A stretch of DNA of 64,000 bases from Bacillota bacterium (GTDB lineage Bacteria > Bacillota > Clostridia > Acetivibrionales > DTU013). The DNA lies in the NCBI GenBank assembly GCA_023399355.1, contig JAEWQC010000006.1, positions 8,422 to 72,421 on the forward strand. The letters run 5' to 3'. The position numbers and the translations under genes are program-made. Positions 24,259 through 53,708 of this stretch are shown piece after piece; the stretch's first letter is position 1, and the number at the start of each line of letters is the position of its first letter. The notes beneath the pieces are model-generated. The model did not search any database. It was not told the DNA's origin and was given only the letters and a program-made list of their open reading frames with translations.

Positions 24259-24291
24259 CATTTGCATGGACAATCAGGAAAGGTTGATTCT

Positions 24292-27200
24292 GTGACTGAA
24301 AAAGTAAACAAGAAGCGTATATTACTGCTGTCCGGCATGGTTGCTGCAATTATTGCTTTTATATGCATATTCAGCTTCTCAAAAGCTGACATTAACCGGG
24401 TACACACTGAAACCGGGGTACTGGACCTGCAAAACCGTGAGCCGGAAGAAAGCAATGTTTTGAGCTTATCCGGCAAATGGGAGTTCTACTGGGAACGCTT
24501 TGTATCCCCCAGGGAACTCGCGTCTGACAGCTTGGCACCGGATTTGTACGCAGAGGTGCCAAAAGTCTGGAACAGCTACAAAATCAACGGCAAGGGTCTG
24601 CCGGGCTTCGGCTATGCCACTTACCGGCTCAAGGTCATAAATGCCCCGGCAGGTGAGCCGCTGTCCCTGAGGATTCCTACCTTTTCCACAGCTTATGCTT
24701 TGTATGTCAATGATCGCCTGCTTGCTTCCAATGGAAAGGTTGGTGCGGACAAGGAGCATTCTTCGCCCGGATACCAGCCTCGGGTGGCGGAGTTCACGCC
24801 GGAGGAATCCAGCTTCGAAATTATCGTTCATATCTCCAACTTCACCTATGCAAGGGGCGGGATGTGGTATGCTATCAATATGGGTACGCCGCAGCAAATC
24901 AGGGCAATGGATAAAGCCATTGCGGACAAGGACCTGTTTCTGTTCGGCGCCCTGTCTGTCATGGCCTTTTATTATCTTAGTATTTTTCTTCTGCGCCGCG
25001 AGGACAGGAGCAGCCTGTATTACGTATTCATGTGCCTCATCTTTGCCAGCCGGACAGTGATCTATGGGGATTTTCTGATTTACAGGCTGGTACCGTTTAT
25101 CAGCTTTGGATCGATCGTCGCCATAGACTACATCACCTTATGCTGGTTCCCCGTTTGCGCCGCTTTTATGTGCGGATCGCTGTTCCCGGAAGAAAGCGCG
25201 AAAAAGATTTTGAGAATATTCTTTATTTATGCCGTGTCCTTCACGCTGCTGTTCCTTCTGACTCCAATTTCATTTTACAGCGGGCTGGTCTACATCGTAC
25301 AGGTATTTTCAATTCTTATCGGAGCTTATGCCATTGCAGGCATAACCGCAGCCTTCCTGAAAGGCGGAAAGGACGCGCCGGTCGTATTACTGGGAGCGCT
25401 GACGGTCATTATTTGTGCTGTACACGATATGTTGTTCCAGAACAATATCCTGCTCAGCAATATAGGGGAACTGGTGCCTTTCGGATTATTCGTCCTTCTT
25501 CTTCTGCAATCCTTCGTTCTTGCAAGGCGCTCTGCGGAGGCATTCAGAAATGTCAGCGGGTTGTCTCAAAAGCTGCTTCGGCTGGATAAAATCAAGGATG
25601 AATTTCTTGCAAATACCTCCCATGAGCTTCGTACGCCTCTGAGCGGTATCCTTGGCATCTCGGAGGCCATGCTCAAGGGCAGTGACGGGGAGATGAGCAG
25701 CCTTCAAAAGAAGGATCTTGCCGTTATTGCCGGCAGCAGCCGCAGGCTGGCCAATCTGGTGAACGACATCCTTGATTACTCTAAAATGAAAAACGGGGAC
25801 ATTCTGCTAAATATTCGTTCCATACAGATAGAGGGCTTGATTTATACAGTCAGGAAAGTATTTCAACAATTGAGTCAATCAAAGGAATACGAAGTCATCT
25901 CCGATATTCCGCAAGACCTGCCCCCGGTGATGGCAGACGAAAACCGGGTAGTTCAGATCCTCTACAATCTTGTGGGAAATGCCGTGAAATTTACCGTCAG
26001 AGGTCGCATAGAAATATCGGCAAAGATAATGGGAAGTATGGTGGAAGTCTGTGTCAGCGATACGGGAGAAGGAATTCCGGAAGATAAGCTGGAAGACATC
26101 TTTAAACCCTTTGAACAGGTAGATACATCTCTTACACGCAGACATGGCGGCACCGGACTGGGTCTTCCCATCACAAAGAAACTTGTGGAATTGCAGGGAG
26201 GCAGCATCCGGGTCGAATCCCATCCGGGGTCTGGTTCCAGGTTCATCTTTACGCTGCCGTTGGCGGATGTATCTCCGGCAGCTTCAGATCAGGTCATGGA
26301 AGATAGCGGGTCGGATATGATGGTGCAGGAATTGGGCGTATCTCTTGAAGAAGCGCCTGGTACGACGAAAAAAGCGGAGGGGGGCGTTCGCGTTCTACTG
26401 GTGGATGATGACGCGGTTAATTTGCAGGCCGCCGCATCCACCCTCCGGTTGGGCGGCTATGGTGTCGTAACGGCTGGCAGCGGCAAAGCCGCCCTGGCAG
26501 AACTGGAGAAACATCGGGAGTATTCGATTGTCCTATTGGATGTAATGATGCCGGAAATGTCCGGCTATGAAGTGTGCAGGAAGCTCCGCGAAAACAGGTC
26601 TCTCTTCGATCTGCCCGTGTTGATTCTGACTGCCAAGGCTTCCACGGAGGATATTGTAATGGGCTTTGAAGCGGGAGCAAACGATTACCTGCCAAAGCCG
26701 TTTGAACCGGAGGAACTGCTGGCAAGGGTCAGGACCCTCACCGGGCTGAAGGCTTCCGTGGACAGGGCGATGGCTGCGGAGGTTGCTTTTATGCAGGCGC
26801 AGATCAAGCCCCACTTCCTGTTCAATACCCTCAACGCCATTTCATCCTTCTGCGACAGCGATACACAGCGGGCCCAGCAGCTCATCGACGATTTTTCCAA
26901 TTACCTGCGGCAATGTTTTGATTTCAAGAGCCTTGAAATGTGCGCACCGCTGGAAAGGGAACTTAGCCTGGTGAACTCTTATGTGGAGATAACAAAGGCA
27001 CGGTTTGGAGATAAACTTAGAGTGGAATTCGACATTGACAATAGGATAAAGACCCGGATTCCTGTGCTTTCCATACAGCCTCTGGTTGAAAACGCCATCA
27101 TTCACGGCCTCAGGAAAAAGGGCGGTAAAGGCACCGTCACCATAAGCGTGAAAAAGGTAGCGGAAGGTGTATTGGTCAAAGTGGAGGATGATGGTCAGGG

Positions 27201-27372
27201 TATCCCCGCCGACAGGCTTGAGGCAGTGTTCCTGTCTGAGGCGGAGCAAGGGATCGGACTTTGGAATATAGATACAAGGCTGAAAAAATTGTTCGGGAAA
27301 GGGCTTACCATAGAAAGTGTGCCGGGAAAAGGCACCAGGGTAGCCTATGTCATCCCGCCGGAGGTGGATTGA
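24292..27372 (+). CDS. hybrid sensor histidine kinase: 7TMR-DISM sensor + HisKA/HATPase + REC + second LytS/YehU-type His_kinase/HATPase
   Basis: ORF 24262-27372. The TTG at 24262 lies inside the terminator T-tract, so GTG 24292 after AGGAAAGG is preferred. Domains in order: extracytoplasmic WEFYWERF...YATYRLKV... domain; seven TM helices; FLANTSHELRTPLSGILG (H-box); NLVGNAVKFT...DTGEGI...GGTGLGL; receiver VLLVDDD...LLDVMMPEMSG...LTAK...KPF; then QIKPHFLFNTLNAISSF and PLVENAIIHGL...GIGLWNIDTRL (PF06580-type core). Confidence 0.85.
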   Translation: MTEKVNKKRILLLSGMVAAIIAFICIFSFSKADINRVHTETGVLDLQNREPEESNVLSLSGKWEFYWERFVSPRELASDSLAPDLYAEVPKVWNSYKINGKGLPGFGYATYRLKVINAPAGEPLSLRIPTFSTAYALYVNDRLLASNGKVGADKEHSSPGYQPRVAEFTPEESSFEIIVHISNFTYARGGMWYAINMGTPQQIRAMDKAIADKDLFLFGALSVMAFYYLSIFLLRREDRSSLYYVFMCLIFASRTVIYGDFLIYRLVPFISFGSIVAIDYITLCWFPVCAAFMCGSLFPEESAKKILRIFFIYAVSFTLLFLLTPISFYSGLVYIVQVFSILIGAYAIAGITAAFLKGGKDAPVVLLGALTVIICAVHDMLFQNNILLSNIGELVPFGLFVLLLLQSFVLARRSAEAFRNVSGLSQKLLRLDKIKDEFLANTSHELRTPLSGILGISEAMLKGSDGEMSSLQKKDLAVIAGSSRRLANLVNDILDYSKMKNGDILLNIRSIQIEGLIYTVRKVFQQLSQSKEYEVISDIPQDLPPVMADENRVVQILYNLVGNAVKFTVRGRIEISAKIMGSMVEVCVSDTGEGIPEDKLEDIFKPFEQVDTSLTRRHGGTGLGLPITKKLVELQGGSIRVESHPGSGSRFIFTLPLADVSPAASDQVMEDSGSDMMVQELGVSLEEAPGTTKKAEGGVRVLLVDDDAVNLQAAASTLRLGGYGVVTAGSGKAALAELEKHREYSIVLLDVMMPEMSGYEVCRKLRENRSLFDLPVLILTAKASTEDIVMGFEAGANDYLPKPFEPEELLARVRTLTGLKASVDRAMAAEVAFMQAQIKPHFLFNTLNAISSFCDSDTQRAQQLIDDFSNYLRQCFDFKSLEMCAPLERELSLVNSYVEITKARFGDKLRVEFDIDNRIKTRIPVLSIQPLVENAIIHGLRKKGGKGTVTISVKKVAEGVLVKVEDDGQGIPADRLEAVFLSEAEQGIGLWNIDTRLKKLFGKGLTIESVPGKGTRVAYVIPPEVD

Positions 27373-27373
27373 A

Positions 27374-28462
27374 ATGATCAGGGCGATTGTTGTGGATGAT
27401 GAACAGCCTTCCCTTGACAAGCTGGATAAGCTGCTGAAGGACAGCGGTCTTGCAGAGATTGAAGGAAAGTTTACCGAGCCGCTGGCTGCATTGGCGTTTT
27501 TGCAGGAAAACAAGGTGGATGCCGTATTCCTGGATATAGAAATGCCGGAGATAGACGGTATTGAGCTCTCAAACCATATTGCCGACCTGCAGGCGGAGAT
27601 TGCCGTTGTTTTTGTAACGGCTTATAATCAGTATGCGGTGGAGGCCTTCCGCCTGAATGCCCTTGATTACCTTATGAAACCGGTATCGGCTGACAGGCTT
27701 GGTGAAACCCTTTGCAGGATCATAAAAGAAAAAAGCATTCCTGTAAGTTCCGGAGAAATCCATGTCCGTTGCTTTGGCGGATTCAAAGTGGATATCGGAA
27801 TGAAAGATGTGAAGTTCCGCACCGAAAAAGCGGAAGAACTCCTGGCCTTTCTGATTGACAGGAAGGAGACTTTTGTCAGCCGGATCGAAATCATTGACAA
27901 CCTTTGGGAGAATTTTGACGGAGACAGGGCACTCATTCATTTCAACACCACACTTCATTATGTTAAAAAAGCATTGCTCCCACATGGAGTCCGCATATCC
28001 ATCCTGCATGAAAGAGGATGCTACAGACTTGATGCGGCAGGCCTATCCTGCGATTATCTGAAATTTTTGGAGTTTGCGGAAAAAAACAAAACTGCCGGAC
28101 AGGAAAACATCCTGAAATATGAAGAGGCGGCAGGCCTTTATACGGGAGAATACCTTTACGGTCTGGAATATGATTGGGCGCTGGCAGGAAGGCTGCTGCT
28201 GGAAGAAGAATTCATCCGTCTGCTGCTTGAAATGTCGAGGTATTACACAGAGACAGGCGACAATCAGAAAGCCGTTAAATGGCTGAAATCAGGCCTGCAG
28301 AAGCAGCCACTCCACAGAGAGCTGAATTACAGGCTGATCGAAGCCTTACTTCTGACCAATGAGCGTATGCTGGCTGTAAAGTATTATGAGATTTACAGGA
28401 ACGGCTTGAAAAAAAAGCTGAAAATAGAAGCGGATGATGAATTTAGGAAACTATTCCAATAG
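27374..28462 (+). CDS. response regulator: REC + OmpR/SARP-type winged helix + BTAD
   Basis: ORF 27347-28462. ATG 27374 follows GGAGGTGG and lies 1 nt after the kinase stop. IRAIVVDDEQ...FLDIEMPEIDG...TAYNQYAVEAFRLNALDYLMKP is a LytR-style receiver. VRCFGGFKV...AEELLAFLI is a SARP-like DNA-binding domain. The TPR-like BTAD tail is YTGEYL...WALAGRLLLEEEFIRLLLEM. Confidence 0.8.
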   Translation: MIRAIVVDDEQPSLDKLDKLLKDSGLAEIEGKFTEPLAALAFLQENKVDAVFLDIEMPEIDGIELSNHIADLQAEIAVVFVTAYNQYAVEAFRLNALDYLMKPVSADRLGETLCRIIKEKSIPVSSGEIHVRCFGGFKVDIGMKDVKFRTEKAEELLAFLIDRKETFVSRIEIIDNLWENFDGDRALIHFNTTLHYVKKALLPHGVRISILHERGCYRLDAAGLSCDYLKFLEFAEKNKTAGQENILKYEEAAGLYTGEYLYGLEYDWALAGRLLLEEEFIRLLLEMSRYYTETGDNQKAVKWLKSGLQKQPLHRELNYRLIEALLLTNERMLAVKYYEIYRNGLKKKLKIEADDEFRKLFQ

Positions 28463-29038: not shown

Positions 29039-32000
29039 ATGAAAAAGAGAATCAACCGATTTATTGCCGTCCTGTTATCATTTTTAGTACTTTTCGCATA
29101 TTTCCCCGCTTTCATTGTCGTCCATGCCGCCGAGCCTCTATTGACGGTTTCGGAGTGCAACGAATACAAGAAACTGATCAGCAGCAGCCTTGATTATACA
29201 ATAGCGATCTCGTCCGACAAGAGAGTAGTTTACTGGGGGTCTCCAACCAGCCCTGCAAGGAATGTGCCGACTGATCTTGAAAATGTCAGGATGGTGGCTG
29301 CCGGATACAGATTTGCTTTGGCTTTGAAGGATGACGGCAAGGTTGTGGCCTGGGGCGACAACGAATTCAATCAGTGTCAGGGAAACGGTCTCACTGATGT
29401 GAAATACATCACAGCCGGTAATTCCTTTGCTCTGGCGTTGAAAAATGACGGTACGGTTGTGGCCTGGGGCGCAAATGAAGGCGGTCAATGCGATGTGCCA
29501 GCCGGTCTCAGTGATGTTGTTGCCATCGAAGCGGGCAGTAACCATGCGCTTGCATTAAAAAGCGACGGCACCGTCATTGCCTGGGGAGCCAACTATACCG
29601 ATTGGAAACAGTGTGATATTCCCATCGACAAAATAGATCCGGCCAATACGGCACTGCCGAAGATTGTCGCACTTGATGCGCCATGGGGACACAATCTGGC
29701 GGTCCGGGAGGATGGATCGGTTGTTGCATGGGGAAATAATGAAAAATTACAGGCGACTGTTCCAGCCGGAATTACAAATGCCGTGGCTGCATCAGGTTCG
29801 CTTTGGTGCTCAATGGTACTCATGGCGGACGGTACGGTAAAGGAATGGGGCAAAACCTACAGCGCCATGGGCATATCGGAACCGTCGGGACTACCCTTTG
29901 TAAAAGCTGTTTCCTCCCAGCAGGATATGTCATTTGCATTGGTTGAAAATGACAGCGGTTATTATAAGGTCATCCCATGGGACGGTAGTGGGAAAAAAGA
30001 GGAGATAAACCTGTCCGTAGGACCTAAAATCGTTTCCTGCGCCTTGCCGGCAGGAGGGGATAAGGATGGGGACAATTCCTATATTGATGTGAGCTTCAAT
30101 CGTGGGATATACGGGGATGCGACCGGGACAAGCGCCGTTTCCGCCTCGGCATTTGTACTGGAGTATCGGAAAAACGAGGGGTCGGCAAATAGTGTCACCA
30201 TTACTTCCGCGACGCGAACGGATGGAACGGAACTTCAGGGCGGAGAAACAACTGTACGGTTCCATCTGGCTGTAAATGGAACACCGAGCGGACAGGAAAC
30301 GATCGAAATCAAGCCGGCATATGATTCAGGCAATGTACCGGTTTACGACGGTAACGGTACCATGATTGAGCCTTCGCAGACCACTGGTGCGACATTCCTG
30401 AATACAACAATGCTTCGTTTCGTATCATCAACGATTGATGATGCCAATACATATATAGATGTGGTTTTCAATAAGGGGATTTACGGGGATGTTCAGGGAA
30501 AAACCGGGGTTTCGGTCAGCGATTTCAAATTCTCCTTCTACCGGAACGACGGTTCCGCGACCGGAGCAACGCTGGTGTCCCTGACCGATAAGGATTTCGT
30601 ATCAACCACGCCCGGAGCGGAGACGGTAAGGTTCAATTTTTCAATCGACGGTACGGTAAACGGGAAAGAGACGATTGAAATCAAGCCGGCCGATGGAAAC
30701 TCCGTATTTACCTCCTCCGGTGAAGCGATGCAAGCCAGCCGCACCACCGGACGCATCCCATTGTCACCGCCGGCGCCGGAGATTGTCGGGATGGAGCTTG
30801 CAAATGACAACAGCCACCTTGATATCACCTTTAACACAGGAGTGTATGGAGACAGGGATAATATCACTAAAGCCGGCTTTAACCCCGTTACCTCCGGAGC
30901 AATCATTTGCCATCTCCAGTCTTTTGGAGGGGGAGCGACGAACGTCAGTATCAGCAGCTTTACCAGGCTTGACGGAATAACGCCGCTGATCGGAGGGGAG
31001 ACTGCTGTCCGGCTGAACCTGAGTTTCACCGGCAGCCCTACGGGAGTAGAATATTTCGGCATATGGGTGGAGCACCTGTATAATTCCAAAGGTGTGTTTT
31101 TGGGATCGGAGAATTCGACGATGATCAAGTTGAAGGCGTTATCGCCAGCGATCGGACTTTGTTCCGCCGCGCCGGATAACGAATATATTGACGTAAACTT
31201 CAACATGGGAGTATACGGCGGGGTGCAAGGATTCGACGAAAAAGGCAGGCCGACGGGTGTAGATAAGGATGATTTCAAGCTCGAATATGTAAAAGGCAGC
31301 GGAACCACTGAGAATGTGACTATTCGGGCCATCGGCGCAAATACGGGTTCAGACCCTGCAAATCCCGCTGTATTGAAAGGAGGAGAGAAAACGGTCCGGG
31401 TCTTTCTTTCTCTTACAAATCCGGCAACCGGCGGGGCGGGGGCGGAGACTGTCAAAATCTCTCCGAAGAATGATGAATCCATTTACAGTGAGGATAAACA
31501 ACCTGTACCTTCCAGCAGTTCGACCGGAAATGTCAATCTCCATGCTTCGTTCCCCGTGATTGAATCCTATAAGCTAGCAGCGGACAACAGCCATATTGAT
31601 GTCGACTTCAATCTGGGCGTTTATGGGGACAGTGCGCATACTCTCCCTGTTTCCGCACCCAACTTCAGCGTGAATTTCTATACCTATTCCTATAACGGCG
31701 GACGTGCAACTGTCGCAACCATCGGAGCAATAACAAGACAGGACGGATCGCCGCTTGAAGCCGGTGACAAAAATCTGAGGCTGCGGCTCAATATCACGGG
31801 AAAACCCAGCGGCGCTGAAACGATTGCGATCTACCCTTCCTCAGCCAACCAGATCTATAATTCCATGGGCAAGTCCATTCTTTCCGGTTCCAGCCAAAGG
31901 GTGCCGGACACCTTCCTGAATCCTGTTCCGGAAATTCTTACAGGGACTCTGGCTGCGAATCTGAGTTATATGGACGTTACGTTCAGCTGCGGTGTTTATG

Positions 32001-35000
32001 GGGATGCGGCTCATACTGCGGCAGTGGATGCAGATGACTTCAAAATCGTATTCAACAAAAATACCGGAGGCTCTGCAACCGGCGTAACAATTGATTCAGT
32101 AAAGAAAACGGATACGGAGGACAAGGACGATGCTGCTTCCGAGCTGACAGGAGGAGAGACGGCGTTTCGTTTTTTCCTATCGATTGACGGCAGCCAGAAT
32201 GGGCAGGAAACGATCCGGATCATGCCTGCCGACGGCAACTCCGTATACTCCGGCGCCGGCAACCCTATGGCGCAGGAACAGTCAACTCCGTCCAGAAACC
32301 TGACCGTTGGACCTCCCGAGATTACCAGCGCAAAGCTTGCGCGGGATAACAGCTATATCGATATCAATTTTAGTTCAAGCGTATATGGTGACAGTATTCA
32401 CAGTACAGGTCTAAATGAGGAGGATTTCAGCCTGTCCGTCGAAAGCAACAACGGGGATGTAAACAGAGCGCATATTTCTTCTGTAAGGCAGATCGACGGA
32501 ACGACCCCGCCCTCAGGCGGCGAAAAAGCTCTGAGACTGTATCTTGTTACCCAGAAAGTCGTTACAGATGAAAAAACAAATGAGACGATGCTTGTGGCGA
32601 CGTCGGCAAGCGGGACAGAGAAAATTGAAGTGAAGCCGGCCGGCGGGAGCTCAATCTATTCCTTCTCCGGGACGGCAATGGATGCCGCGCAGACAACAGG
32701 TAAAATCAGCCTTGCCGAAATTCCCAGGATTGTCTCCGGCGTGATGGCGGCGGATTACAGCTATGTCGACGTGACCTTCAGCAAGGGAGTGTATGGCGGA
32801 AGCAACGGCAGGACACCCCTTTCGGCAGGCAGCTTCCTGCTGTATTTCGAGCGGAATGGAGGCATCGCAACGAATGTCTCCATCAAAGCCGTGCGCAAGG
32901 CATCCGGTACGTCGCTCTCAAGCGCGCCGGCACTCACGGGCGGGGAGACGACTGTCCGCGTATTCCTCAGCGTACTCGGAGCCGCCGACGGCAAAGAGTG
33001 GATCAAAATCCTGCCGGCTGGTGCCAGGGCGATCTATGACTCGTCCGGCCGCGCGATGTCGGATGATAAATCGACAGGAATGCTTTACCTGAAGGGCAGT
33101 ACGCTTCAAATCGTATCGTCTTTCATTGCTGAGGATAACAGCTACGTTGATGTCAATTTCAATGTCGGTGTGTACGGAGCTGCCGACGGCGATTCTCCGG
33201 TCACTCTGAATTGTTTCGGGATTGCCGCCACCGACGGCAGAATCGCTTCAGTTACCAAAACGGACGGGGAAGCATTGACGGGTGGCGAGACGACCCTGAG
33301 GTTCCACTTGAACTTCCCGTATGTGCAGTATCCGGGAGCCGCTTTTGCAATTGTTCCGGCTTCTTCATCGGGGGGACCGAAGGTATATAACGCAAACGGG
33401 GCCGAAATGCCGCTGAACCAGCAGACCGGCATGATCCCGCTGAACAATGTGGCGTTGGATTCCAGCGAATTGTCCCAAAACAATGCGTATATCGACTTAA
33501 AATTCGATATGGGCGTTTATGGAAACAATGCGCAAAATACGCCCATCGGCCCGGAGGATCTGGCGCTGGAATTCAGACAGAACGGAGGTACGGCGACAGG
33601 CGCAGCGATAAGCTCCATCCGTCCGGCGGACAATGCCGTCGAGGCGGATGCAGGTACGCTCAAAGGCGGTGAGGCAACCGTAAGGGTATTCCTGAAGGTG
33701 AGCGGAAATCCGGATGGTAAGGAAACGGTAAGCCTTTCGACTGTTCCGGGAAGCGTCATCGGATCGCATATTCTCGCGGGAGTATTGACGACGGGCGCAA
33801 TATCCATGTACTCCGGCGCTTTCAAGGCCGTTTCCGCTGCCATGGGCGACGATAACGCCTATGTTGACATGACCTTCAGCCAGGGGATATACGGGGATGC
33901 CGCAGGCAGGACTCCCGTGGACGCAAACGATTTTGCGGCAAGCTTCTCCGGAGGACCGGGATCCCTGACCGGCGTGAGTATTGCAGCCGTCGGGAAACCG
34001 GACGGTGAAAAACCGGGAACGGCTTCCATGCTGACAGGCGGAGAAAAGACGGTCCGTATTTTCCTTTCCGTGTCGGGAACCTTAAGCGGATCGGAAAGCC
34101 TTAAAATAGAACCGAAAACAACGTCATCCATCTATCCGCTGCATGGTGCGGCCTTGTCCGGAGAGAACTCTTCAGCCACTGTACAGATGATTTCCAACAA
34201 GCCGGAAATTCTCTCATCGGTGATGGCAGCCGGCAGCAAATATGTAGATGTCATATTCAATATAGGCGTATATGGGACCGCCTCTTCAGGACCGGTGACC
34301 AGGGACAGCTTCGATTGCGCTTTCAACGCCAATGCGGGAAATGGCGGGAACGGCAAAATCACCGTATCCGTAAACTCCGTCAGGAAGCCTGACAGCGGGA
34401 GCGAAGCATTTGCTTCCGCTCTGACGGGCGGGGAAAAAACGCTCCGCTTTTTCCTCAAAATCAACAAGGCTCCCGGTTCGACGGCAACGGATTCCATCAT
34501 ACCCACCGGCCTGGAGACGATTGTCATCACCCCTGCGCAAACCATATATTCCAGTACAGGGCAGCAATTGAGCACGTCCGCGTCCACCGGCCCGGTCGGC
34601 CTCCTTGCCCCGGAGCCGGAATTCGGGGATTGCTCCGCGTCGCAGCAGAGCGGTACCGATAAGAAGCTCCAGTATATTGATGTCAAATTTACCACCGACG
34701 TTTTTGGGGCCGCCGACGGTTCCACCCCTGTCGATCCGTCCGATTTTGAATTGCTGTTCGCCAGGAACTCCGGAAATGCGGAGAGGGCGGAGATCCTGTC
34801 CGTCTGCAGGCCTGATCCGGCCGAGCCTGCAAAGGACTCGGAGCTGACGGGAGGAACCTCCGCCATCAGGTTCTATCTGAAGACCTATTTTGGAAATGGC
34901 GCTAACGCAGTCGAAGCTTCGACTTCGGGTGTGGAGACTGTGGTTATCAAGCCAAAAGACAATTCCATTTTCAACAGATCAGGACAGGCAATGGCTGTGA

Positions 35001-38000
35001 CAAAAGCAACAGATGCGCTGAAGCTTGCGAATATGTTTCCAAGGGTCGTTTCGGCAAGAGTGGGACCCGGGAACGGTTATGTCGACGTTACCTTCAGCAC
35101 CGGTATTTACGGTAATTCCGGGAGTACCGGCAAGGCGGCTTATTATTCCAATTTCCAGGCCGTGTTCACCAGAAACGGAGGTGCGGCGACAAACGCAAAC
35201 ATCAACTGGGCTGCGAAACCCGACAACTCCGACAGGCTGCTGGCAACGACGCTGGTCGGGGGCGAGGAGACGATCCGGTTCTTCCTTACGGTAACCAATG
35301 TGCCAAGCGGAGTCGAGATGGTAGAGATCGTACCTGCCAGTCCCCAATTGAGGGACGCAGACGGGCTGACGCTGAAAGCAGCGCAGTCAACCGGCAGGCT
35401 CAGGCTTGTCACCCCGTACCCTCCCCAGTGGTCATTGTCCGGTTCAAGCGAAGAAGCCCCGGGATGGATGTCGGACTATAGAATCAGTACGGGAAATGCG
35501 CATACGCTTGTCGTAAAAAACGACGGTACCGTCGCGGCATTCGGGGAGAACTCCCAGGGACAGGCAAATGTGCCGGGAACTTTGTCCGGCGTGGACTCTG
35601 TGGCTGCCGGGGATACATTTTCGGCAGCTCTGAAAAAGAATGGAACACTTGTCGGGTGGGGTGCGCTCAAGATACCGGCTGGAATGACAAACGTAAAAAT
35701 GATTGCAGCCGGCGGCAGCACGTTGTTCGCACTCAGGGCCGATAGCAGCGGGGAGTACATATCATTGGTCGGGGACGATTACTATAAGTATGACGATGAC
35801 AACGACAGGAATTATTATGTTGAGAAACTGAAGCTAATGGACAAGGATGTGCCGGTCAAGGCAATATCAGCAGGCAGCGACGAGCATCTGCTAGTGCTCA
35901 GGAACGACGGCACGGTTGAAGCCTACGATTATAATGACCGGTTGACTTCCGACTATTATGGGCAGTGCAGCATACCTGAAGGCCTGAAGGAGGTCAGAGC
36001 CGTTTCCGCCGGATTCGGCTTCTCCCTGGCGCTGAAGAAGGACGGCACCGTCGCGGGATGGGGAAATGTCAGGCTGCCGACGGGTGGACTCGTCAATGTT
36101 TCCGCGATATCCTCCTCTCTGAGGGGGTACTGCGTGCTCAAGACGGACGGTACCGCAGAGGTTTATGATATCAACGGCGTCAAGCTTATAAATAGCGGTA
36201 CGGCTGTCCTTAGCGGCATAATCGGGGTCAGCGCGGGAGCGGATACCTATCTTTTTGTCAGCAGGGACGGCACTGTGGATGGCCTGCGGGATACGGGAGT
36301 ATTCGGGTATATGGAGGATATCGATACTCCGGCGGACTTAAACATTTATAAGCATGTGCTGAATGGGACGATCTCCGGTAACGCATTCGTAACTCTCGAA
36401 CTAAGGGATTCAACCGCGGTAAATGCCGCAAAACTTGGCATGTATGGCGGCAACGGCTTGAGAGGCATCACCGCGGCGGATCTGAAGGTGGAAATTGTAA
36501 AGGGCAGTCAAAGCCTGCTGGGGATAACGATCACGGATGTGAAAAAAGGATCGAGCATATATGAGGATGCCGCCGCCGGCGATACGGCTGTCAGAGTTAT
36601 GCTCAGGGTAGCGGGAGTGCCCGACGGTACCGAGAGATTCGTCATCAAGCCCACTACGAGCTTCTCTGTGGCGGATGCTTCCGGCAATTCCATTTTCGCC
36701 TCACAGCCGTCAAATGTGATCGCGCTGGACAGGGGCTCCGAATACGAGCTGTATTCCAGGAGGATAGACGCAGGCTGGAGCCATACCGTTGCGATGAAGG
36801 ATACGGGATACGTCTTCAACTGGGGGGACAACACCTATGGACAGGCTCCCGCAATGCTGAACCGGGACAATGCGGTGCAGGTTTCCGCCGGATATCATCA
36901 CACGGTGGTTCTGCTCCATGACGGAACAGTGAAGGAATGGGGCGAGAATTATTACGGTCAGCTGGATATGCCCGGTAACGTTAAAAATATCATGCAAATA
37001 TCGGCCGGCGGATACCATACGCTGGCGTTGAAGTCGGACGGCACCGTTCTTGCATGGGGGGATGATTTCTATAAACAATGCACGGTACCTCTGGGTCTGT
37101 TCAATGTGATTGCCGTTTCCGCGGGCGGGCATCATTCCCTCGCCCTGAAGTCCGACGGCACGGTGGCCGCCTGGGGGGACGACAGCTTCAGGCAGTGCAG
37201 CGGCATGCCTTCCGGACTGAAGGAGGTGGTCGCGGTTTCGGCGGGCGACAACTTCTCCCTTGCATTGAAGCGGGACGGGACAGTCGTCGCCTGGGGGAAT
37301 AACGATAAAGGCCAATGTACGGTACCTTCTGGTCTGGCAAACATAAAAGCGGTCTCTGCCGGCTACAGGCATGCGCTCGCTCTGAAGTCGGACGGTACGG
37401 TGGTCGCCTGGGGGGACAACAGCAAAGGTCAATGCACGGTACCTTCAGACCTGACAGGTGTATTTGCTGTTTCTGCAGGGGCATATCACAATGCCGCCAT
37501 TAAAAGCGACGGCAAAATTATAGCCTGGGGCGACAACAGCGCCGGACAGGCCGCTGTTCCCGAAAGCGGACTGCCGCCGAAGGTCGTGTCGGCTGTAATG
37601 GCTGAGGACAACAGTTATATAGATCTGCAGTTCAATGCAGGCGTATACGGATCTCCTGATGGAACGGGCCCGCTGAAGACCGGTAATTTCAAAGTGGTAT
37701 TTGACGGAAAATCCGCTGGCGGCGCTACGGGAGTTTCCATCTCATCCGTCAGAAAAAACGACAATCCGCTGGAGAGCAAAGCTTCCGCTCTTACCGGAGG
37801 TGAAAATACCGTCCGTGTATTCCTCACATTCTCCGGCGTGATAAAAGGCGTCGAAACGGTCCAGCTGACGCAGGATAGTGCAAAACCGATCTATGACATG
37901 TACAAGGTGCCAATACAGAATGCAAACCTGACACCGGTATTTACGCTCAAGTTACAGAAAACCGGAAATGACATTATGGTCGACAATATCAGTTCCGGCG

Positions 38001-41000
38001 TGGGGACAAAATATGAAGTCGTGGCTATTGACAGCACAGACGGCAAATCGGCGCCCGTCTACGATTATGTTCCGTCAAACAATTGTTACAGCATATCCTG
38101 GGAGCATGAACTTAAAACGGCGGGTGCTACAAAAAATGCGGACGGGTTTTATGAAAGCAATAATACAATGCTCATTGCCGGTTTCTACAGTAAAGAGAAA
38201 AACCATGCCAACCAGGATATAACACAGGTGACATTCAACAGCAAGCCTATGAAATTCCTGAAGACAGCAGCCATCGGCGACATGAAGCTTGATCTGTACT
38301 ACATGCTCGGCAAGGATTTTCCGACTAATCCCGGCAAGTATAAGGTTACTGCGTATTACAGGGGTTCAAACAATTTACTTTACGGGAAAGCGGTATCCCT
38401 GACAAATGTTGCCCAGATGGCGCCTGAGAATGCCGCGTCCACTCTGGATGACGGAACGTACTGGAATATGAGTACGGCCCTGGAAACCAAAACAGATCAT
38501 GCAATGCAGGTCGATTTTACCGCAACGCCAAACAACAATGAAGTGGCAATGAAGACAACGAACCGGGACAAGGCCGGCGCCTATGTGACAAATTGCAACG
38601 ATTCCGTCTATTATAAAGACTGGGCGACAATATCCGCATCCGTACGGAGCGCCGAATATCCCAAAGAAGACATATCCTATGAATTAACTCCGACATATGA
38701 CACTCTGCCCGAGCTGCCTGCCGGAAACAAAATCGCTTTTGTCCAGGACGCCGGCAGTTCAGGGAATGCGGCAGCAGGACGCCAATTTACCTTCACGTCC
38801 GGTGACGATGGCGCAACTGTCACAATACTCAGCTCGCCGGATGGAAATAGCTGGACCACCTCGACATGCTCGCTGCCCGCTATTACCTATCAAGGTTTTA
38901 CCTATACCTATTTTGGCAAAACGGAGATTACGGACTGGGCTGCATATCAGGATACCGCATCCGGCACGACCAGGTATGTAGCTATTGGAAATGCAAATGT
39001 CGGCCGATACAAACAGGACGGCTCAGCCGAATATGAAACGGAAGAGTATACGGATGAAGGCGGGCACCCGCAAACACACAGATGGACCTATGAGACAAGT
39101 ATCAAGGTCTACCTTATGTCTTCGGACGGCGAGCATTGGACATCGGGTTATTACCCGGACTTTGTATTCGGGAATTATGAGAATGTAAAAAACGGATCTT
39201 TGTATACAAAATTCAAAGAGATCGTGTGCAACAACAATGGATTGTTTGTTGCATACGACAATGCAAATGTCTATTATATGATCTACTCCGATACGGAATG
39301 GACATTGGGGAAATCCTTTGAGAAGGACAGCCAGGGGAAGGTTGTAAACACGCAGTACAATTACCTGACGGGGCTGTTTACCAGGAATAATATCCTTGTG
39401 CTGACCGGCAGGGGACTGGATGATGAAAACCTGAATATTTACTGGTCAACGGGGGGCAGGGATTGGAAGCAGGCTGCCGTCACGTACAGGGATCCAAAGT
39501 TCTACGAGTACGACAAAACAGCCAGGAAGACGATCTGGACATACAGCAGGTCATTTACCGGAATGACTTATGCGCATGATACGTTCGCCGCCTCCAATGA
39601 ATATACCATCGCGGCGTCGCAGGACGGGAAAAACTGGAGCGTGTACAAATCGGACAAACAGGGTTCCGATCTTGTGGCGTTCCATGACACCTTCTTCCGG
39701 ACGGTATATTACCATACGGCTTCGGGAAATGCATGCTGGCTGCTGAGCTCCGACGACCTTCTGGACTGGCAGGTGGAAGACAAGGACTTCCTGCTGAGCG
39801 AGTTCACTCCGGAGGGAGCCAAGAAAACACTTACCGCAAATACCGTTCGCAATGGGTTCGAAGCCATGACGCTGGAGTTGGCGGCACCGGAAGACGGGGA
39901 TGTCAAAGTGCCTGTGAACAGTGTCCTGACCATAAGCTATACTGATGAATTGAAGCAGGGCGCAGATTTTAAAAGAATCTCACTGACAACCGCGGCCGGG
40001 ATCAATGTACCTGCCGGTCTCCTGCTTGACGGCGAAAACGGGACCATGAGCATTCTGCCCAAAGATGATCTTTCGCCAATCACGAAGTATATATTGACTA
40101 TACCTGAAGGTGCTTTGATAAACACGACCAGTATGAAGGCAAACAAACTGCTGAGGATTGCATTCACAACGGGCACCTCCACACTCCCGGAGATAACCGG
40201 TGATAATCTCGGATCGGCTGAGAATCCCTTCGATGTCGATTCGCCGCTGAACCTTTGTTATTCGCGGGATATTGCCGTAAATTTACAGACATTGTTCGAT
40301 AAGATAACGGTTGCTCCAAAAAACAATCTGTCAAATAAAGTTCAACTGGACAGGAGGATTGAGGGAACAAAGCTGATTCTGACACCGGCTGTGCCTCTGC
40401 AATATACTACTGCATATATGATCACAATACCGGACGGGGCCGTTAAAGATTTGTTCGGCATTGAGGCGGGTGGGAAAAGCATAGAGTTTATGACCGGAGC
40501 GGACAGCAAATTACCTGTGGTTGAAAGAACCGATCCGGTTGACTTGGGCGAACGGATTGCGACTGCTAATCCGATCTGTGCATATTTCAGCGAAGCGGTT
40601 ACGAAGGGAGCCGGTTTCGGCGGGATTACACTCCGGGATATCCGGTCCGATACTGCAACTGAAGCAGAGGTTACTCTTAAGGATGAAATTGTAAATGGGA
40701 CCACAAGAACCGCACTGATCATCCAGCCTGCAGCCGAACTGGCCCTCCACCACACCTACCGCGTAACGATTCCGTCCGATGCGGTCAGGGATGCGTCAAA
40801 CAATACGTTGGCTTCCGAATACTCCTTTGAGTTTACGGAGGAGATCAGAAAATCTTATCCTGTGCTTGTCGGATCGTCTCCCTCGAACAATGCCACCGAG
40901 GTGGACTTCATGGGCGATATCGTACTCACCTATGATCGCCCGATTAAAATGACGGATTCCTTCAGCCTGCCGGGATTTGTCTCCATCAAAAGCCAGGATG

Positions 41001-44000
41001 CAAACCATAGCGGAGTGGTCCTGTTCACCGCCAGGGTCGAAGGTAGTAAACTGATCATCACACCCAACCGGACGCCGAAGGATACACCCTATGATGCGTT
41101 GCTCTACGGCTGGCCTTATGAATTGCGCTATACCGGAGAATGTATCAGCGATTTATATGGGAATAAAGATATCACTGACATCCATTCGATTCTGTTTACC
41201 ATTGAAAGCCAGAAAATTGAATCAAGGTATCCGGCTGCGGACGGTTCGGACATTCCGCTCAATGCGGGCATCAGGGTGATGTTTGGCTCCAGGTTCGACA
41301 ATGCTGTCAAGGGAGCAAATTTTGCGGATATCAGGGTGAGCAGGATGGATGTGAGCGGAGGAAAGACAACCTATACGGACATCGCCTCCCATGCGGTTCT
41401 AAGCGGAAACAGCCTTTACATCTCCCCGGAAGAAGATATGAGCCCCCTGAAGACATATGCCGTCGAGATTCCAAGAGGCGCAGTCAAAGGTTCCGGAACA
41501 GGTGTGAACAATTATGATGCGTTCAGCTTCACCACAGGCACCGATTCCTCCAATACCGGCAGCATCGAGGGACCTGATGCGCTCAGAACCGGAAACGGAC
41601 TTTTGGAGGGGGCAGCGGCAAATTTCAAATCCGTGGGCTATCCTGAGGGCACCGGCTTCGTCTGGGATTTCGGAGACGATGCAACCGCATCGGGCGCAGC
41701 TGTATCTCATATGTTCACAACACGCGGCGAATATAACGTGATGCTGGTTTATACAAATTCAGCAGGCGAGCCGCGTACTATACGCAAAGCTGTCAGCGTA
41801 CTCAAACGACCTGATCTCTCATCTGTACAGCTTGATGCCACACCTTCGGCTCCTGTTGCGGTTCCGGCCGGGAGCAGCGCCGAATGGGTGGTTTCGCTCA
41901 GGAGCGGAGGACAGCCCCTCGGAAAGGCGCCGATCCTTGTCAGCAGGGTCTATCCGGTTACGGAAAACAGGCCGCCGGAGGTCCTGACGACGATCGAAAC
42001 CGACTCCAATGGGTATGCGAGCTACACCGGCACGCTTCCTGAAGGAGTATCGGAGTACTATGTGAAATTTACGTATGAAAACAGTTACAATGGCGTGACA
42101 GTGAAAAAAGAAATCAGAAGGATCATGAAGAGTGCGGTAGGAAAGGTTGAGGTATCCGGATACGTCATCAACGACAGGAATGTTGTCCAGTCAGGTGCTG
42201 CCGTGAAGATTGGAACCACCTCTGTCAGGACGGACAACACCGGATATTACAAGATAACCGGACTGGACGTCGGTACATATACCATGCTCGTCAGTGCGAA
42301 CATGCATTATGACAGTGTAACGGAAATATCGCTTGCTCAAAAGAGCCTGGTCAAAAACATTACGCTCACAAAACGGTCGCCCACCGGCAATCCGTCAGTC
42401 AGTACCATATACATAAACAATGCCGCTCCGGCATACGGACAGAATTTTTACTTCCTGCAGGGGATTGACGCGCCGATAGCGGTACACGCACTCATCGACT
42501 GGAATGGTCATGATCCGGGGTACGTTGAATTCAACCTGAACGGCACGGTCACCAGGAGTACAAACTTTGAGTTTTCGTTGAATGCAAAGAATCTCAAACA
42601 GGGCGATCAGCTCCTGATTGCCTGTGTGACTGCCGATGGCGTCCGGTCGGCTGCTTCCAACGCCCGCATCAATATCATCGAATCGCTTCCGAGAGAGTTT
42701 CCCGTCGATTTGAAACCGACATTTGTCGGGAATAAATATGTCATCGACCAGTATATTCCCCTGACAGGCATCAGTACTCCCTATATCGACAATATCCCGC
42801 TGCTCTCGGGAGGACCGATTTCCTTCCTGTCGCAGCCGGCCCGCGTAACCGGGTTTATGGGCCTGGACGGCACATTCACCGCTGTCGTCGGGAAAGGGGT
42901 CGATGCCAAAGCCATCAGTTATGCGGCGCAGAACAATATGCTGCAGAAATATCTGGCGAGGCAAAACGCATCGACCCAGGCGGAAATAGATGAGATCAAC
43001 GGCAGAAGGTCAAGCTCCCAGTTTGGCAGCTTCGAGTTCAGCGCGAACCTGGACGCCAACTTTAACTGGAACTATATCCCGGATTTAGGCAGGTGGCAAT
43101 ATCTCACGGGAGATATTGCCCTGAATGTGGATACCGAACTGTACGGCAAGAGATCATGGGGCATCAAGGGGATCCCGGTGAGCGCTTTCCTTGCCGGACA
43201 ATTCACACTTGAGATGGATGCGTCCCTGAAGTCGACGGGATCGATAGGAAACTACACCAGCGGATACCTTGACTTCTCCAAAATCGAGATCGAGATTTCC
43301 GGCGGATTGGATGCGTTTATTGCAAGCGCGGGCATCTACTTCGCAGGAGGCGGAAAGGTCAGGATCGATTTCCCGTCGGCGGATGTCAAACATTACATCT
43401 ACGTCAAGGGCTACGCGAAGCTGAAAGCGCTGCTCTGGAGCGTAAATTACCCATTCCTGGAGTACGGCTGGGGCGATGACTATGCCACCGGCAGCAAGGT
43501 TTCCTCCTTGATGTACGATAAAGCCGCCGGTCTTTATGATGTGAAGGAAAATGAGCTTCAGGAAATGAGCAGGGATTACATCAATGGCCAATCGGGATGG
43601 GAGCCATACGGGACGGAGATTACAGGGTCGGTGCCGGTGTCAGACGACTCAGCTTCAATGCCGGGCAGCAGAGCTTCGGCATCAGCAAATGCAGCTTCAG
43701 ATTCATACAGCACAGCTTCGGTACCGGACAATGCTGTTTCAATGCGAAGCAGCGCAGTTACGGCATTAAGCGGAACAGCCACAGCGACAAGCAATACTGC
43801 CCAAATGCAAAGCAGTCCAGCTTCGGCATCAAACAGCACGACAAAGACGACGCTGCGAAGCAATACCTACCCGTATACCGATCAGAAGCTTGTACCGTAT
43901 GACGGCGGTGCGCTGATGGTGCTACTTGAAGATGATCCGGGCAGAACCTCCCTCAACAGGACAAGAGCGTCTTATTCCATCTACAACGGCAGCACATGGA

Positions 44001-47000
44001 CAGCTCCGCTGCCGATAGAACCGGATGATGAGACGGCGGACTTCAAACCTGTGGCGGCTGCCACAACCAACTGTGTCCTGGCGGCATGGGAAAACCTGAA
44101 GGATGTTATGCCAGGGGACGCCAAGCTTGGAGATGCGCTTAAAAGTGAAGAGATCCGCGCCGGCTTTTATGATTCGGCGACGGGAAAATGGAACAGCCCC
44201 TACGACCTGACATCGGACAGCTACCTTGACCATTCGCCCCAAATAGCTGCGGGCGGTGGCAGCGGCATTCTGACCTGGGTCAAGAGCAAATCGGACAATT
44301 ACGATTCCGCCCTGAGCAATGCCTATTCGGCTAAAGATGAGATCATGTTCTCGAAATGGGACGGGAGCAGCTTCAGCAAACCGGACGTCATTGCTTCGCC
44401 CGACGGGATCGTCATTGATTCCTCCATTGCATATGATGGGACTAACGGAGCGTTCGCATGTACGCTGGACGGAGATAACGACCTTAGTACCACCGATGAC
44501 CGCGAGATTTATATCATGACGTACGACGGAACAAAGTGGAGCCCGCTCAGCCGGATGACAGATAATACCGTCAGGGACTCTTCACCCCAGGTTTGCATCG
44601 ATAAAAACGGGAAAGCTTTCCTTGCCTGGAGCGAAGACAAAAAGCTCATGTACGCGGCGGATGCGGGTTCGGATCAGCCTCAGCTCAAAACGGCTCTTGA
44701 GGATACGATCGTCACCGAGCCTCTCACAATGACCCTGAAAAGTGACGGCAGTATTGCTCTGATCTGCCCCGGCAAGTCGTCTGAAGGCGGACAGGAACTG
44801 TATATGATGACATATGACTTTGAATATGATGCCTGGAGTAACGAAATAGAGCTTACGTCGGATCAGGCAAACAACTACTCGCCCAGTTCGGTATTTATCG
44901 GCAATCAGCTTGTGACCGTCTACAACAGGGCGCAGGTGGTTGAGGAAACCAATCCTGCGGATGGGCAAACCTACCCGGCAGCGAGCGACTGTGCCGATCT
45001 TGTGATGTCCTCCGTAACACTCAGTCACGATCTGTCAGTTACATCTGCTGCAATTACGATGTCGGATAATAATCCGTATCCCGGAAGTGTCATTACCATC
45101 GGTGCAACGATAGAGAACAAGGGAATGTTCGCCGAACCGGGAGTTGAGGTTTCATTCTACTACGGAGATCCCGGCAAGGGCGGAACACTGATAAAAACGG
45201 TGACCGTTCCCGGCCCCGTCGTTCCGGGTGACGCGGCATATGCCTCGACCGAATGGGAAGTGCCTTCCGGCGGGACGGAAACCGAACTGTATGTTGTGGC
45301 GAATTATAAGGATAAATCAACCACGGACGGGAACCCAACGGACAATACCGCGGTCAGAAAGATCGTGAGTCCCGATCTCGAGATATCGGCGCTGAAATGT
45401 ACACCGGCAGGAGAAGGAAAATACGCTATTTCGGCAACAGTAACCAATATCGGCCGTTCGGATGTCGCAAATGCAACCGTCTCATTCAACCGCGGCGACC
45501 AGGCAGGCAGCCTGCAGGCTGTCGGAACGGCAGACACCGGAGCGCTGGGCAAGGGCGAGGCAAAGGATGTATTATACCTGTGGCCGGCGGACCCAGGCGT
45601 GTGGATAACGGAAGAAAACAGCTCCAATCCCGGCAAAGTGGATATTTTTGCTTCGGTTGAGGCAACGGGCGGTACGGCTGAGACGGAGCTTTCGAATAAT
45701 CTGTCGACGACAACTCTTGTAAGGAAAAGCCTGAACATACTGGCAACCGATCCGTCCAACTACGGAAAAAACGTCGGTATTGACAAGACTGTCAATATGA
45801 CCTTTGACAGTACAATCAAGAAAGGCGGCGCTTTTGAGAACATTACGCTGGCAGGTCCGGATAATATACCGGCAGCTGTCACAAAAACCATAAGCGAGGA
45901 TACGTTAACCATCAAACCGAATTCACCGCTTAAGTACGGCAGTACCTATACGCTCAGAATTCCAGCTTCTGCGGTCATTATTGCGGAGAGCGGCATATCC
46001 GGCAGCGAGTGTACAATCACTTTCAGCACGGAAACGAACCCCCAAGGCCCGGGTAATCCTGACAACCCGGGCAATCCAGGCGGGAATCCGGGCAATCCGG
46101 CTTCCGGCAACCCAGGTACGAACTCGGATAAGGATAACGGAACCAACACCGCCATCGTATCCGGGGCTTATAAAGGAACGGTTGAAGTGAAGACGGATGC
46201 CGGAAAGGGACAGGCGACAGCCATCCTTGAGGAGGCATTCCTTCGGCAATCAAAGGATTCTCTCTCCATACGGCTGCCCAAAATTGAAAAAGCCGTATCC
46301 TATGGTTTGCAGCTGCCATCGTCCGCCTTATTTGCGAAACCGGGAGACCGTAAGATTAAAATGATATGTGAAAACGGCTCTATCACGCTTCCATCCAATA
46401 TGCTTACGAAGGATCAAGCCGGGAGTCATGAGACTGTGTCTGTCACTATGACAAAAGTTAATGCCGGGAATCTGCCGGGCGAAGTTCAAAAGCTGGTTGG
46501 AAATAAGCCTGTTATTGAGCTGAAGCTGAAGGCTGACGATAAAATGATGGAATGGAGCAATCCCGATGCGCCTGTTACGGTGTCCATTCCATACAAGCCG
46601 ACTGCGGCGGAGCTGTCGGATCCCGATAAGATCGTGATCTGGTACATTGACGGTTCAGGCAGCCTTACTCCGGTTTTTGCCAGCTTTTATGACCCGGAGA
46701 CGGGAATGGTGACATTCAGGACAACCCACTTCAGCTATTATGCAGTAGCGTATGTAAAAAAGAGCTTTACGGACCTGAAAGGTTATTCCTGGGCAAAAGC
46801 TCCCATAGAGGCGCTGGCTGCCAGAGGAATCCTGAACGGCATGCCTAAAACCATGTATTATCCGGGAAAGAATATCACAAGAGCGGATTTCCTGTATATG
46901 CTCGTAAGAACGTTGGGGCTGAGCACCGGGTTCAAATCCAATTTCTCCGATGTAGACAAAAATGCATACTACTGGAACGAACTTGGTACCGCAAGACAGC

Positions 47001-47766: not shown

Positions 47767-48355
47767 TACTTCAATGTGCTGCAATGCAGGGCATTTATAT
47801 CATAAATATGGAAGAGACGACAAATATGTTTTTTATCTTGAAACTCATTTGGAAAAGGGAAGTGAAACATATGTAGCGCTGATAAATTATTATAAGGAGC
47901 ATGATAATTTTGACGGGGCATGCCGAGTGGCAGAACAGGCGCTGGAAAAATGCAAAGATGATCTGACGGAGGCTTTTATATATCTCCTTGTTGATGCGGA
48001 AAAGAGAGAAGATAAAGACAAGTGCAAAAAAATTGTATAGCAGTGCGAAGAGAAGGCGATTGGCAGATATTAACCGAATAGATCAAGTGTTAAGTGATTT
48101 TAATTCAGGTAGTTATACTTGAAAAAAGATATTGTATGGGACTTGGCTTCAAATGACGAATTGATTTTATGACAAATTGAGAAGTATATATTTGACAGAA
48201 TTACACTTATAACTCTTTACACAGGTGAATATTTCAGATAGAATAAATGCGAACAAATGTTTGGCACAGAGAAAAAAATGAAACAATCACAAATTGTGAC
48301 CGTTAGGTATTTGGATATAGATCATCAATAAATCAAAGCGGAGGAAATAAACCTT

Positions 48356-48707
48356 ATGGCAAAGAAAAAGAATAACGAAATCACCATCCGTTCCAGTGCA
48401 GCAGAATACTTGACATACGTTGCAGCGACAGGAGATGATCCTCAAAGCTTTGAAATGCACTATAAGGACGAAAACATCTGGCTTACGCAGAAAATGCTAG
48501 CAACACTATACAATGTAGAGGTTCATACTATAAACGAGCATATTTCTAAGATTTATACGGATAGTGAACTTGTACAGGAAGCAACTATTCGGAATAATTG
48601 CTAAAGCTCATGCTGAAAGTGAGTTTGAGAAGTATCGCATTATCCAGGACAGGCTGTTTCAATCTGACTTTGATAAATTAATTGAGGGCATAAGGAATGA
48701 AGAATAA
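48356..48707 (+). pseudogene. RhuM-family gene remnant (N- and C-terminal pieces joined by deletion and frameshift)
   Basis: 48356-48604 encodes ...FEMHYKDENIWLTQKMLATLYNVEVHTINEHISKIYTDSELVQEATIRNNC*, which resembles a RhuM N-terminus. From 48600, in the +1 frame, the sequence continues AKAHAESEFEKYRIIQDRLFQSDFDKLIEGIRNEE*, the typical RhuM C-terminus. The central bulk of the protein is absent. Confidence 0.55.
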
Positions 48708-48724
48708 CATTTAAAGGCGTGGCA

Positions 48725-48817
48725 GCGGCAAAGTAAAGTACCGAGAAAACGGCAAGTAAAGTGAGGAAATCCGGCAATGAAATGTCAGAGATTTCGGCAA
48801 TGGAAGTGAGGATTTAG
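48725..48817. repeat. four degenerate ~23-bp tandem direct repeats (CGGCAA-N-GNAAGTGAGGAAAT-like)
   Basis: GCGGCAAAGTAAAGTACCGAGAAAA / CGGCAAGTAAAGTGAGGAAATC / CGGCAATGAAATGTCAGAGATTT / CGGCAATGGAAGTGAGGATTTAG, read directly from 48725-48817. Confidence 0.5.
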
Positions 48818-52010: not shown

Positions 52011-52037
52011 ACAGACTAATAAGTGCGGGGATGTTTC

Positions 52038-53703: not shown

Positions 53704-53708
53704 CCGTT

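Follow-up and report, generated by a model that had tools for sequence, protein, structure and literature searches.

A repeat of about 125 amino acids (aa), present in sixteen copies in a giant surface protein of a Bacillota bacterium, appears to be an uncurated, divergent branch of the Big_5-type immunoglobulin-like (Ig-like) domains. The protein is encoded in the window analysed here, which is the whole stretch of 64,000 nucleotides (nt) of contig JAEWQC010000006.1 (assembly GCA_023399355.1, positions 8,422 to 72,421), and all of the repeats lie within one unbroken open reading frame (ORF) of 6,088 codons at 29039-47305 on the + strand. The assignment to Big_5 is made with moderate confidence from profile comparisons. 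That the unit is Ig-like, that it belongs to this branch, and that its array works as a long stalk or spacer are, taken together, held to be reasonably probable.

The 16 copies and their age

A hidden Markov model (HMM) of the repeat, seeded with 12 units anchored on the motif D-N-S-Y-I-D, recovers exactly 16 copies of the ~125-aa unit in the giant protein and none elsewhere in it. There are 14 contiguous units (aa 329-2125, nt 30023-35413) and two single copies, units 15 and 16, that bracket the third of the RCC1-like clusters in the protein. The independent E-values (iE) are 3e-13 for the degenerate copy, unit 15, and 1e-30 to 1e-51 for the other 15. Going by the HMM boundaries, neighbouring units abut, with linkers of essentially zero length. 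The copies are as follows.

30023-30406, + strand: repeat unit 1 (HMM iE 1.1e-44)
30401-30769, + strand: repeat unit 2 (HMM iE 4.4e-33)
30764-31144, + strand: repeat unit 3 (HMM iE 1e-38)
31133-31546, + strand: repeat unit 4 (HMM iE 5.3e-44)
31541-31924, + strand: repeat unit 5 (HMM iE 6.3e-44), first half of the tandem-pair model
31916-32308, + strand: repeat unit 6 (HMM iE 1.7e-50), second half of the tandem-pair model
32303-32719, + strand: repeat unit 7 (HMM iE 5.9e-42), in the alignment, 15 aa are inserted following the GGE..R strand
32711-33097, + strand: repeat unit 8 (HMM iE 1e-51), the unit modelled singly
33092-33448, + strand: repeat unit 9 (HMM iE 2.2e-37)
33437-33814, + strand: repeat unit 10 (HMM iE 3.2e-42)
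33809-34195, + strand: repeat unit 11 (HMM iE 4.5e-49)
34190-34609, + strand: repeat unit 12 (HMM iE 1.6e-30)
34631-35032, + strand: repeat unit 13 (HMM iE 4.6e-30)
35027-35413, + strand: repeat unit 14 (HMM iE 7.3e-45)
36386-36733, + strand: repeat unit 15, degenerate, with the first ~23 profile positions unmatched
37565-37954, + strand: repeat unit 16, intact (HMM iE 3.3e-49)

This 14+1+1 arrangement had been proposed in the initial annotation, a model's reading of the sequence alone, which counted sixteen copies and placed the fourteen in tandem at 30020-35410, only a few bases away from the span given by the HMM. Both flanking copies had also been seen, at 36359-36735 and 37573-37960, but the start at 37573 lies 2 nt off the reading frame. 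For unit 15 the first HMM matches nt 36425-36733 (iE 3e-13, HMM positions 25-127) and the iterated profile matches nt 36386-36730 (iE 8e-16, HMM positions 24-119).

The alignment of the 16 window copies, A1, has the consensus blocks DNSYIDVxFNxGVYG, LTGGExTVRxFL, and GxETxxIxPA..IY...G.......STG, in which the three-block signature described in the initial annotation reappears. G29, G78, and R83 are invariant in the 16 copies, and at least 90% of them keep D20, F23, Y28, L86, G94, and E96. Pairwise identity among the copies ranges from 22 to 48% with a mean of 35%, in keeping with the earlier estimate by eye that about a third of the positions are conserved, and Tandem Repeats Finder detects no DNA-level repeat with the period of the unit.

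An orthologue of 6,013 aa found by exhaustive HMM search (P0001) also has 16 copies, in the same 14+1+1 layout. Every unit of the window shares 64-79% identity with the P0001 unit in the same position, as against only 22-46% with any other P0001 unit. Two further loci, found with a single 382-aa query in the metagenome-assembled genomes (MAGs) Bacillota bacterium OH_HBrB_109 (L001) and Clostridia bacterium SMAG_U6968 (L002), share 73-76% identity with the window and have the 14+1+1 arrangement within an open frame of more than 4,700 codons. Between orthologues the array is 71% identical, compared with 60-78% in other regions of the protein, which is the same rate of divergence. Since positional identity to the orthologue exceeds identity between paralogues and the array diverges like the rest of the protein, the duplications that generated the copies are ancient; the units have not evolved in concert, none has been gained or lost in the P0001, L001, and L002 relatives, and the array is under ordinary purifying selection. 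The presence of the 14+1+1 array in these relatives excludes an assembly artefact. Recent duplication, like artefact, is ruled out by the low identity between copies, the lack of a DNA-level repeat, and the conserved orthologous layout, so that the earlier description of the copies as old duplications is borne out.

The link to Big_5 and the predicted fold

When the 16 units are scanned singly against Pfam at E<=10, none matches a relevant family. There is no Pfam match to FN3, PKD, CARDB, or Cadherin-like domains in any unit, and no Cadherin-like profile was compared separately. NCBIfam has no match in the N-terminal 3,100 residues of the protein, and sequence profile searches of the PDB, both with A1 and with A3, the family-wide alignment of 96 diverse members, give chance-level matches only. 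Indeed, two homologues that consist almost wholly of this domain, with 7 copies each (P0009 and P0016), have zero Pfam families. The absence of a curated model for the units, as claimed in the initial annotation, thus extends across all three libraries; no confident Pfam match to an already described family was found, the best score in the family being below threshold. No description of the unit was found in the literature on Big_5 or on giant proteins with RCC1 and S-layer homology (SLH) domains.

The further claim that the repeat belongs to no known family, and is not a Big domain, stands only in part. Pfam does not match it, but the family-wide profile aligns end to end with Big_5. The motifs F-S-E-x-V and D-x-x-G-N are hallmarks of Big_5. 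The consensus of the repeat family reads P-x-I ... N-x-Y-x-D-x-x-F-S-E-G-V-Y ... D-F-x-L-x-F ... N-G-G-x-A-T ... L-x-G-G-E-x3-R-x-x-L ... G-x-P-x-G-x-E-T-I-x-I-x-P ... S-I-(Y/F)-D-x-x-G-N, and retains both F-S-E-x-V and (Y/F)-D-x-x-G-N. Pfam Big_5 (PF13205) matches 5 of the 96 diverse members, all below its gathering threshold of 23.6 bits, with a best score of 20.5 bits (E 8e-4, profile positions 17-100 of 105). The threshold is reached by none of the 96 family members and by none of the 16 window units, which do not match Big_5 even at E<=10. A Big_5-only profile, iterated over 151 proteins with every repeat-family domain kept out, still matches repeat-family domains with coincident boundaries, at E down to 3e-8 in this small database. 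In hhalign, the alignment of A3 with 91 Big_5 domains, of which 9 of 10 sampled members exceed the Pfam Big_5 threshold, has a probability of 90.6% and an E-value of 1.3e-6 over 98 columns (1-113 against 4-111). The controls, 20 column-shuffled versions of A3 and one reversed, reach no more than 1.8%. A3 against local CARDB, PKD, and fn3 alignments, which are thin, reaches no more than 0.2%; together with the Pfam result this agrees with the initial annotation as to FN3, PKD, and CARDB, and it is the exclusion of Big that holds only in part, on account of Big_5.

On the basis of the sub-threshold Pfam matches, the matches of the Big_5-only profile, and the hhalign alignment with its clean controls, the unit is taken, with moderate confidence, to be an uncurated divergent branch of Big_5-type Ig-like domains. 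The branch would be marked by an insertion of about 15 residues that carries L-x-GGE-x3-R, and by a conserved G-x-E ahead of the strand that follows. Most of the FSE and GN hallmarks has been lost in the window copies, which accounts for the failure of both Pfam and the initial annotation to place the unit.

Several observations weigh against this relationship. The 16 window copies (A1) compared with the broad Big_5 set have an hhalign probability of only 0.3%, and either A1 or A3 compared with only the protein's own six Big_5 copies gives 0.2-1%; the signal appears only when the family-wide profile is set against a broad Big_5 alignment. The CARDB, PKD, and FN3 control alignments hold just 3-5 sequences each. 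Solved Big_5 domains are not near the top of the Foldseek results, and the hhalign probability for the Big_5 link is in itself suggestive and not conclusive.

In another homologue (P0014), Pfam BIg21 (PF05688) scores 37 bits in sum (E 4e-9) at aa 1486-1545, inside repeat copies, where no single stretch passes by itself. The match may form another weak link, in this case to the BIg domains of adhesins.

Gram-positive adhesin domains stabilised by isopeptide or ester bonds were considered and rejected. The former need a conserved Lys with an Asn/Asp and a catalytic Glu/Asp, and there is no conserved Lys in the 16 copies; the latter need Thr, Gln, and His, and the copies have no conserved His or Thr/Gln pair. 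In the family as a whole, Lys, His, or Gln is the majority residue in none of the most conserved columns.

With regard to the fold, the AlphaFold2 (AF2) model of unit 8, for which the 16 copies were the input alignment, is all-beta with no real helix (predicted local distance difference test score, pLDDT, 96.6; predicted template modelling score, pTM, 0.90), and DSSP assigns it six strands of at least 3 residues and short C-terminal beta segments. In Foldseek searches of the PDB nothing matches this model at E<=1e-3, and its best neighbours are Ig-like, the N-terminal domain of DsbD and the beta2 domain of MHC class II, with a template modelling (TM) score of about 0.5. Against viral structures the best match is an uncharacterised phage protein (E 3e-3). 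The model supports an Ig-like beta-sandwich, as had been guessed from the sequence pattern, the Foldseek neighbours being only of this type, and the unit has no close solved structural relative. The model of a tandem pair (units 5-6) has pLDDT 89.9 and pTM 0.69, with confidence falling at the junction, and has one Foldseek match below 1e-3, the giant glycoprotein FMG-1B (PDB 9gos, E 2.8e-4). The Big_5 tandem of LdtMt2 from M. tuberculosis (4qr7, 4gsr, 3tur) is matched by the pair at E 0.04-0.1 and TM of about 0.2, and is absent among the 50 single-unit Foldseek matches listed.

The low confidence at the junction would also fit an orientation that AF2 is unable to settle when no ions are present, and this bears on whether the array is an extender stiffened by Ca2+, comparable to RTX and BIg adhesins, in which D/N15-16, D20, E79, E96, and D110 bind Ca2+ at the junctions. 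Several acidic and amide positions are indeed conserved family-wide, the linkers between units have no length, and Ca2+ sites of this kind are described for the BIg domains of SiiE in PMC5466336. However, no known Ca2+-binding motif is detected and no BIg, Cadherin, or RTX-adhesin model matches, save for the weak summed BIg21 match in P0014. Ca2+ stiffening is regarded as rather improbable.

Family distribution, host protein, and possible roles

The family is large. An exhaustive HMM search of 1.84 billion representative proteins, clustered at 50% identity, finds 1,086 representatives at E<=1e-3, 720 at E<=1e-10, and 197 at E<=1e-30. A word-indexed homologue search with the 16-unit alignment had no match, which, given the 1,086 proteins found exhaustively, reflects the sensitivity limit of that tool. 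The members are mostly 1,000-6,000 aa long, and most of the best 150 carry 2-16 copies. Their sources include MAGs of Clostridia, Marinimicrobia, and Solirubrobacterales and metagenomes of TARA Oceans, and the few names they have been given are 'hypothetical protein' or 'S-layer homology domain-containing protein'. Pfam has no family overlying the repeat itself in these proteins. The domains that co-occur with it are SLH, the Por_Secre_tail of the type IX secretion system (T9SS), Laminin_G_3, fn3, C-type lectin (Lectin_C), RCC1, Big_5, and Big_12. The unit is therefore a widespread extracellular module of both SLH-anchored and T9SS-sorted proteins; the T9SS-secreting carriers are probably Bacteroidota.

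In the giant ORF of the window, Pfam identifies RCC1_2 (14 stretches), WD40_RLD (6 stretches), six Big_5 domains, one PKD, one CarboxypepD_reg, two CARDB, and a C-terminal SLH. Between aa ~329 and 2125, the stretch flagged in the initial annotation, there is no Pfam match at E<=0.1. Apart from the repeats, the features of the protein are as follows.

29039-47305, + strand: giant ORF, surface protein with 16 repeats (ORF list and Pfam)
29039-29128, + strand: probable Sec signal peptide, MKKRINRFIAVLLSFLVLFAYFPAFIVVHA/AE (from inspection of the translation)
29156-30022, + strand, approximate bounds: RCC1-like cluster 1, N-terminal propeller, presumably distal (Pfam RCC1_2/WD40_RLD, WG-x-N-x-x-GQ motifs)
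35414-36385, + strand, approximate bounds: RCC1-like cluster 2, more degenerate (translation and Pfam)
36734-37564, + strand, approximate bounds: RCC1-like cluster 3 (best RCC1_2 stretch aa 2769-2798; WD40_RLD aa 2688-2841)
39881-41536 (aa 3615-4166), + strand: 5 canonical Big_5 (PF13205) domains, the nearest known relatives of the repeat (Pfam, iterated profile)
45743-46030 (aa 5569-5664), + strand: sixth canonical Big_5 domain (Pfam, iterated profile)
46751-47302, + strand, approximate bounds: C-terminal SLH region, cell-wall anchor (Pfam E 7e-25; best stretch aa 5909-5951)

By analogy with BIg extenders, the string of repeats is probably a stalk. The Sec signal peptide would direct export of the protein and the C-terminal SLH region would fasten it to the cell wall, and the 14-unit string would form a long and fairly stiff stalk or spacer that holds the N-terminal RCC1-like propeller or propellers, presumed to be the binding modules, off the wall-bound C-terminus and apart from one another. 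An Ig-like domain usually adds, by our own estimate, about 4 nm to the length of a protein, at which the string of 14 would reach a length of several tens of nanometres. The conserved pattern is largely one of alternating hydrophobic strand residues and glycines, with several polar positions as well, and the conserved residues may serve folding or the geometry of the junctions and not the binding of a ligand.

Against this, N16, D20, GGE79, R83, G94, and E96 could form a metal or ligand site and not be purely structural. The signature N16/D20, L-x-GGE-x3-R, and G-x-E is kept across more than 1,000 protein clusters in several phyla, and were it a dedicated metal or glycan site, which is unlikely, the 16-copy string would be a multivalent rod, possibly switchable by Ca2+, and the family would be an extracellular module with a new function that merits a separate definition. 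Somewhat less probable again is that the units themselves bind, with the GGE...R and GxE loops as a carbohydrate or protein site and the 16 copies giving multivalent adhesion to a polymer or cell. Conservation is strongest at polar and glycine residues, several of which belong to loops rather than to the hydrophobic core alone, and the motif is kept in 16 of 16 copies, including the isolated unit 16; elsewhere, proteins of the family also carry the lectin-type domains Laminin_G_3 and Lectin_C. The units, however, lack aromatic platforms and any other signature recognisable as sugar-binding, the Pfam and PDB searches show no similarity to any carbohydrate-binding module or lectin, and the glycines and the Arg/Glu pair are equally typical of the stabilisation of turns and of salt bridges. 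The paralogues are 22-48% identical, and therefore any shared binding surface would be limited to a few invariant residues.

The SLH anchor and the Big_5-type domains, to which the repeat is remotely related, also raise the question of whether the Ig-like array drives self-assembly of an S-layer-like lattice, as in S-layer proteins of the SbsA/SbsB type, from which the InterPro name of Big_5 is taken. With its 6,088 aa, three RCC1 propellers, and numerous further modules, the window protein does not resemble S-layer proteins that form lattices, and the family is also found in T9SS-secreted proteins (Por_Secre_tail), which carry no SLH, making this very improbable. A stalk of Big_5-related units is the role that is preferred here.

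Two long stretches of the giant protein are without a Pfam or PDB sequence match. The first, of 638 aa (37955-39868, aa 2973-3610), contains about five motifs resembling Asp-boxes or BNR repeats (SSPDGNSWTT, SSDGEHWTSG, STGGRDWKQ, SQDGKNWSV, SSDDLLDWQV), on account of which it is probably a beta-propeller of unrecognised type. The second, of 760 aa (42719-44998, aa 4561-5320), lies between CarboxypepD_reg and CARDB. A short Pro/Gly/Asn linker at 46049-46100 (PGNPDNPGNPGGNPGNP), coded by an imperfect 9-nt tandem repeat, separates the last Big_5 domain from the C-terminal portion of the protein, at whose end is the SLH region. On the - strand, over the repeat region and RCC1 cluster 3, there are long ORFs at 30538-31482 (314 aa), 34132-34866 (244 aa), and 36710-37432 (240 aa). 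Most likely these are not genes but a side effect of how the coding strand is composed.

The region immediately upstream of the giant gene (24262-28462) encodes an unusual hybrid sensor of 1,036 aa, with 7TMR-DISM, HisKA, HATPase, and receiver domains and a second His_kinase module of the LytS type, and a response regulator with a BTAD/TPR output domain, the two genes overlapping by 26 nt. This pair may regulate the giant surface protein. Just past the giant gene, the G+C content falls abruptly from about 50% to about 33% (window ~48000-64000). The low-GC part has a NusG-like protein (49543-50148), presumably resembling the LoaP-type NusG paralogues, followed by AMP-binding, acyltransferase, and non-ribosomal peptide synthetase (NRPS) genes with condensation, adenylation, and thiolation (C-A-T) domains, the last of them at 59661-62783. 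This looks like a secondary-metabolite cluster, possibly acquired horizontally.

Comparison with known systems

At least 1,086 clusters of proteins are without a Pfam or NCBIfam model for this domain and almost all of their members are unnamed or 'hypothetical', which is an annotation gap. The A3 seed alignment and the link to Big_5 would permit such giant surface proteins to be described as Ig-like stalk proteins. The protein in the window adds one example of giant modular wall-anchored proteins that show RCC1-like propellers on Ig-like stalks, with no new mechanism.

Of the known systems, Big_5 (PF13205) is the nearest. It is of a similar length class, it is likewise an all-beta Ig-like sandwich, the profiles align colinearly over nearly their full length, and both types of domain occur in the same proteins, including the giant ORF described here. 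The repeat differs in having the extra segment of about 15 residues that contains L-x-GGE-x3-R, and the conserved G-x-E.

The tandem extender of the Marinomonas ice-binding adhesin is another built from bacterial Ig-like domains. Giant-adhesin extenders such as this and that of SiiE share with the window protein the long unbroken runs of Ig-like domains of ~100-125 aa in a very large exported surface protein, with the other modules at the ends. For SiiE, 53 BIg domains are described in PMC5466336. The repeat family is, however, not BIg, Big_1, or Big_2, none of which it matches, and the window protein has an SLH anchor and a Sec signal peptide where those adhesins use a type I secretion system (T1SS). 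The copies in the window are also far more diverged (22-48% identity) than the copies in those adhesins.

FMG-1B of Chlamydomonas (PDB 9gos; bioRxiv 10.1101/2024.09.28.615573) is likewise a giant surface protein, in its case a glycoprotein with 3,878 residues in the solved chain. It is eukaryotic, and has 12% identity, a TM score of 0.29, and a root-mean-square deviation of 15 A to the tandem pair. The resemblance is one of fold only, and is not evidence of homology.

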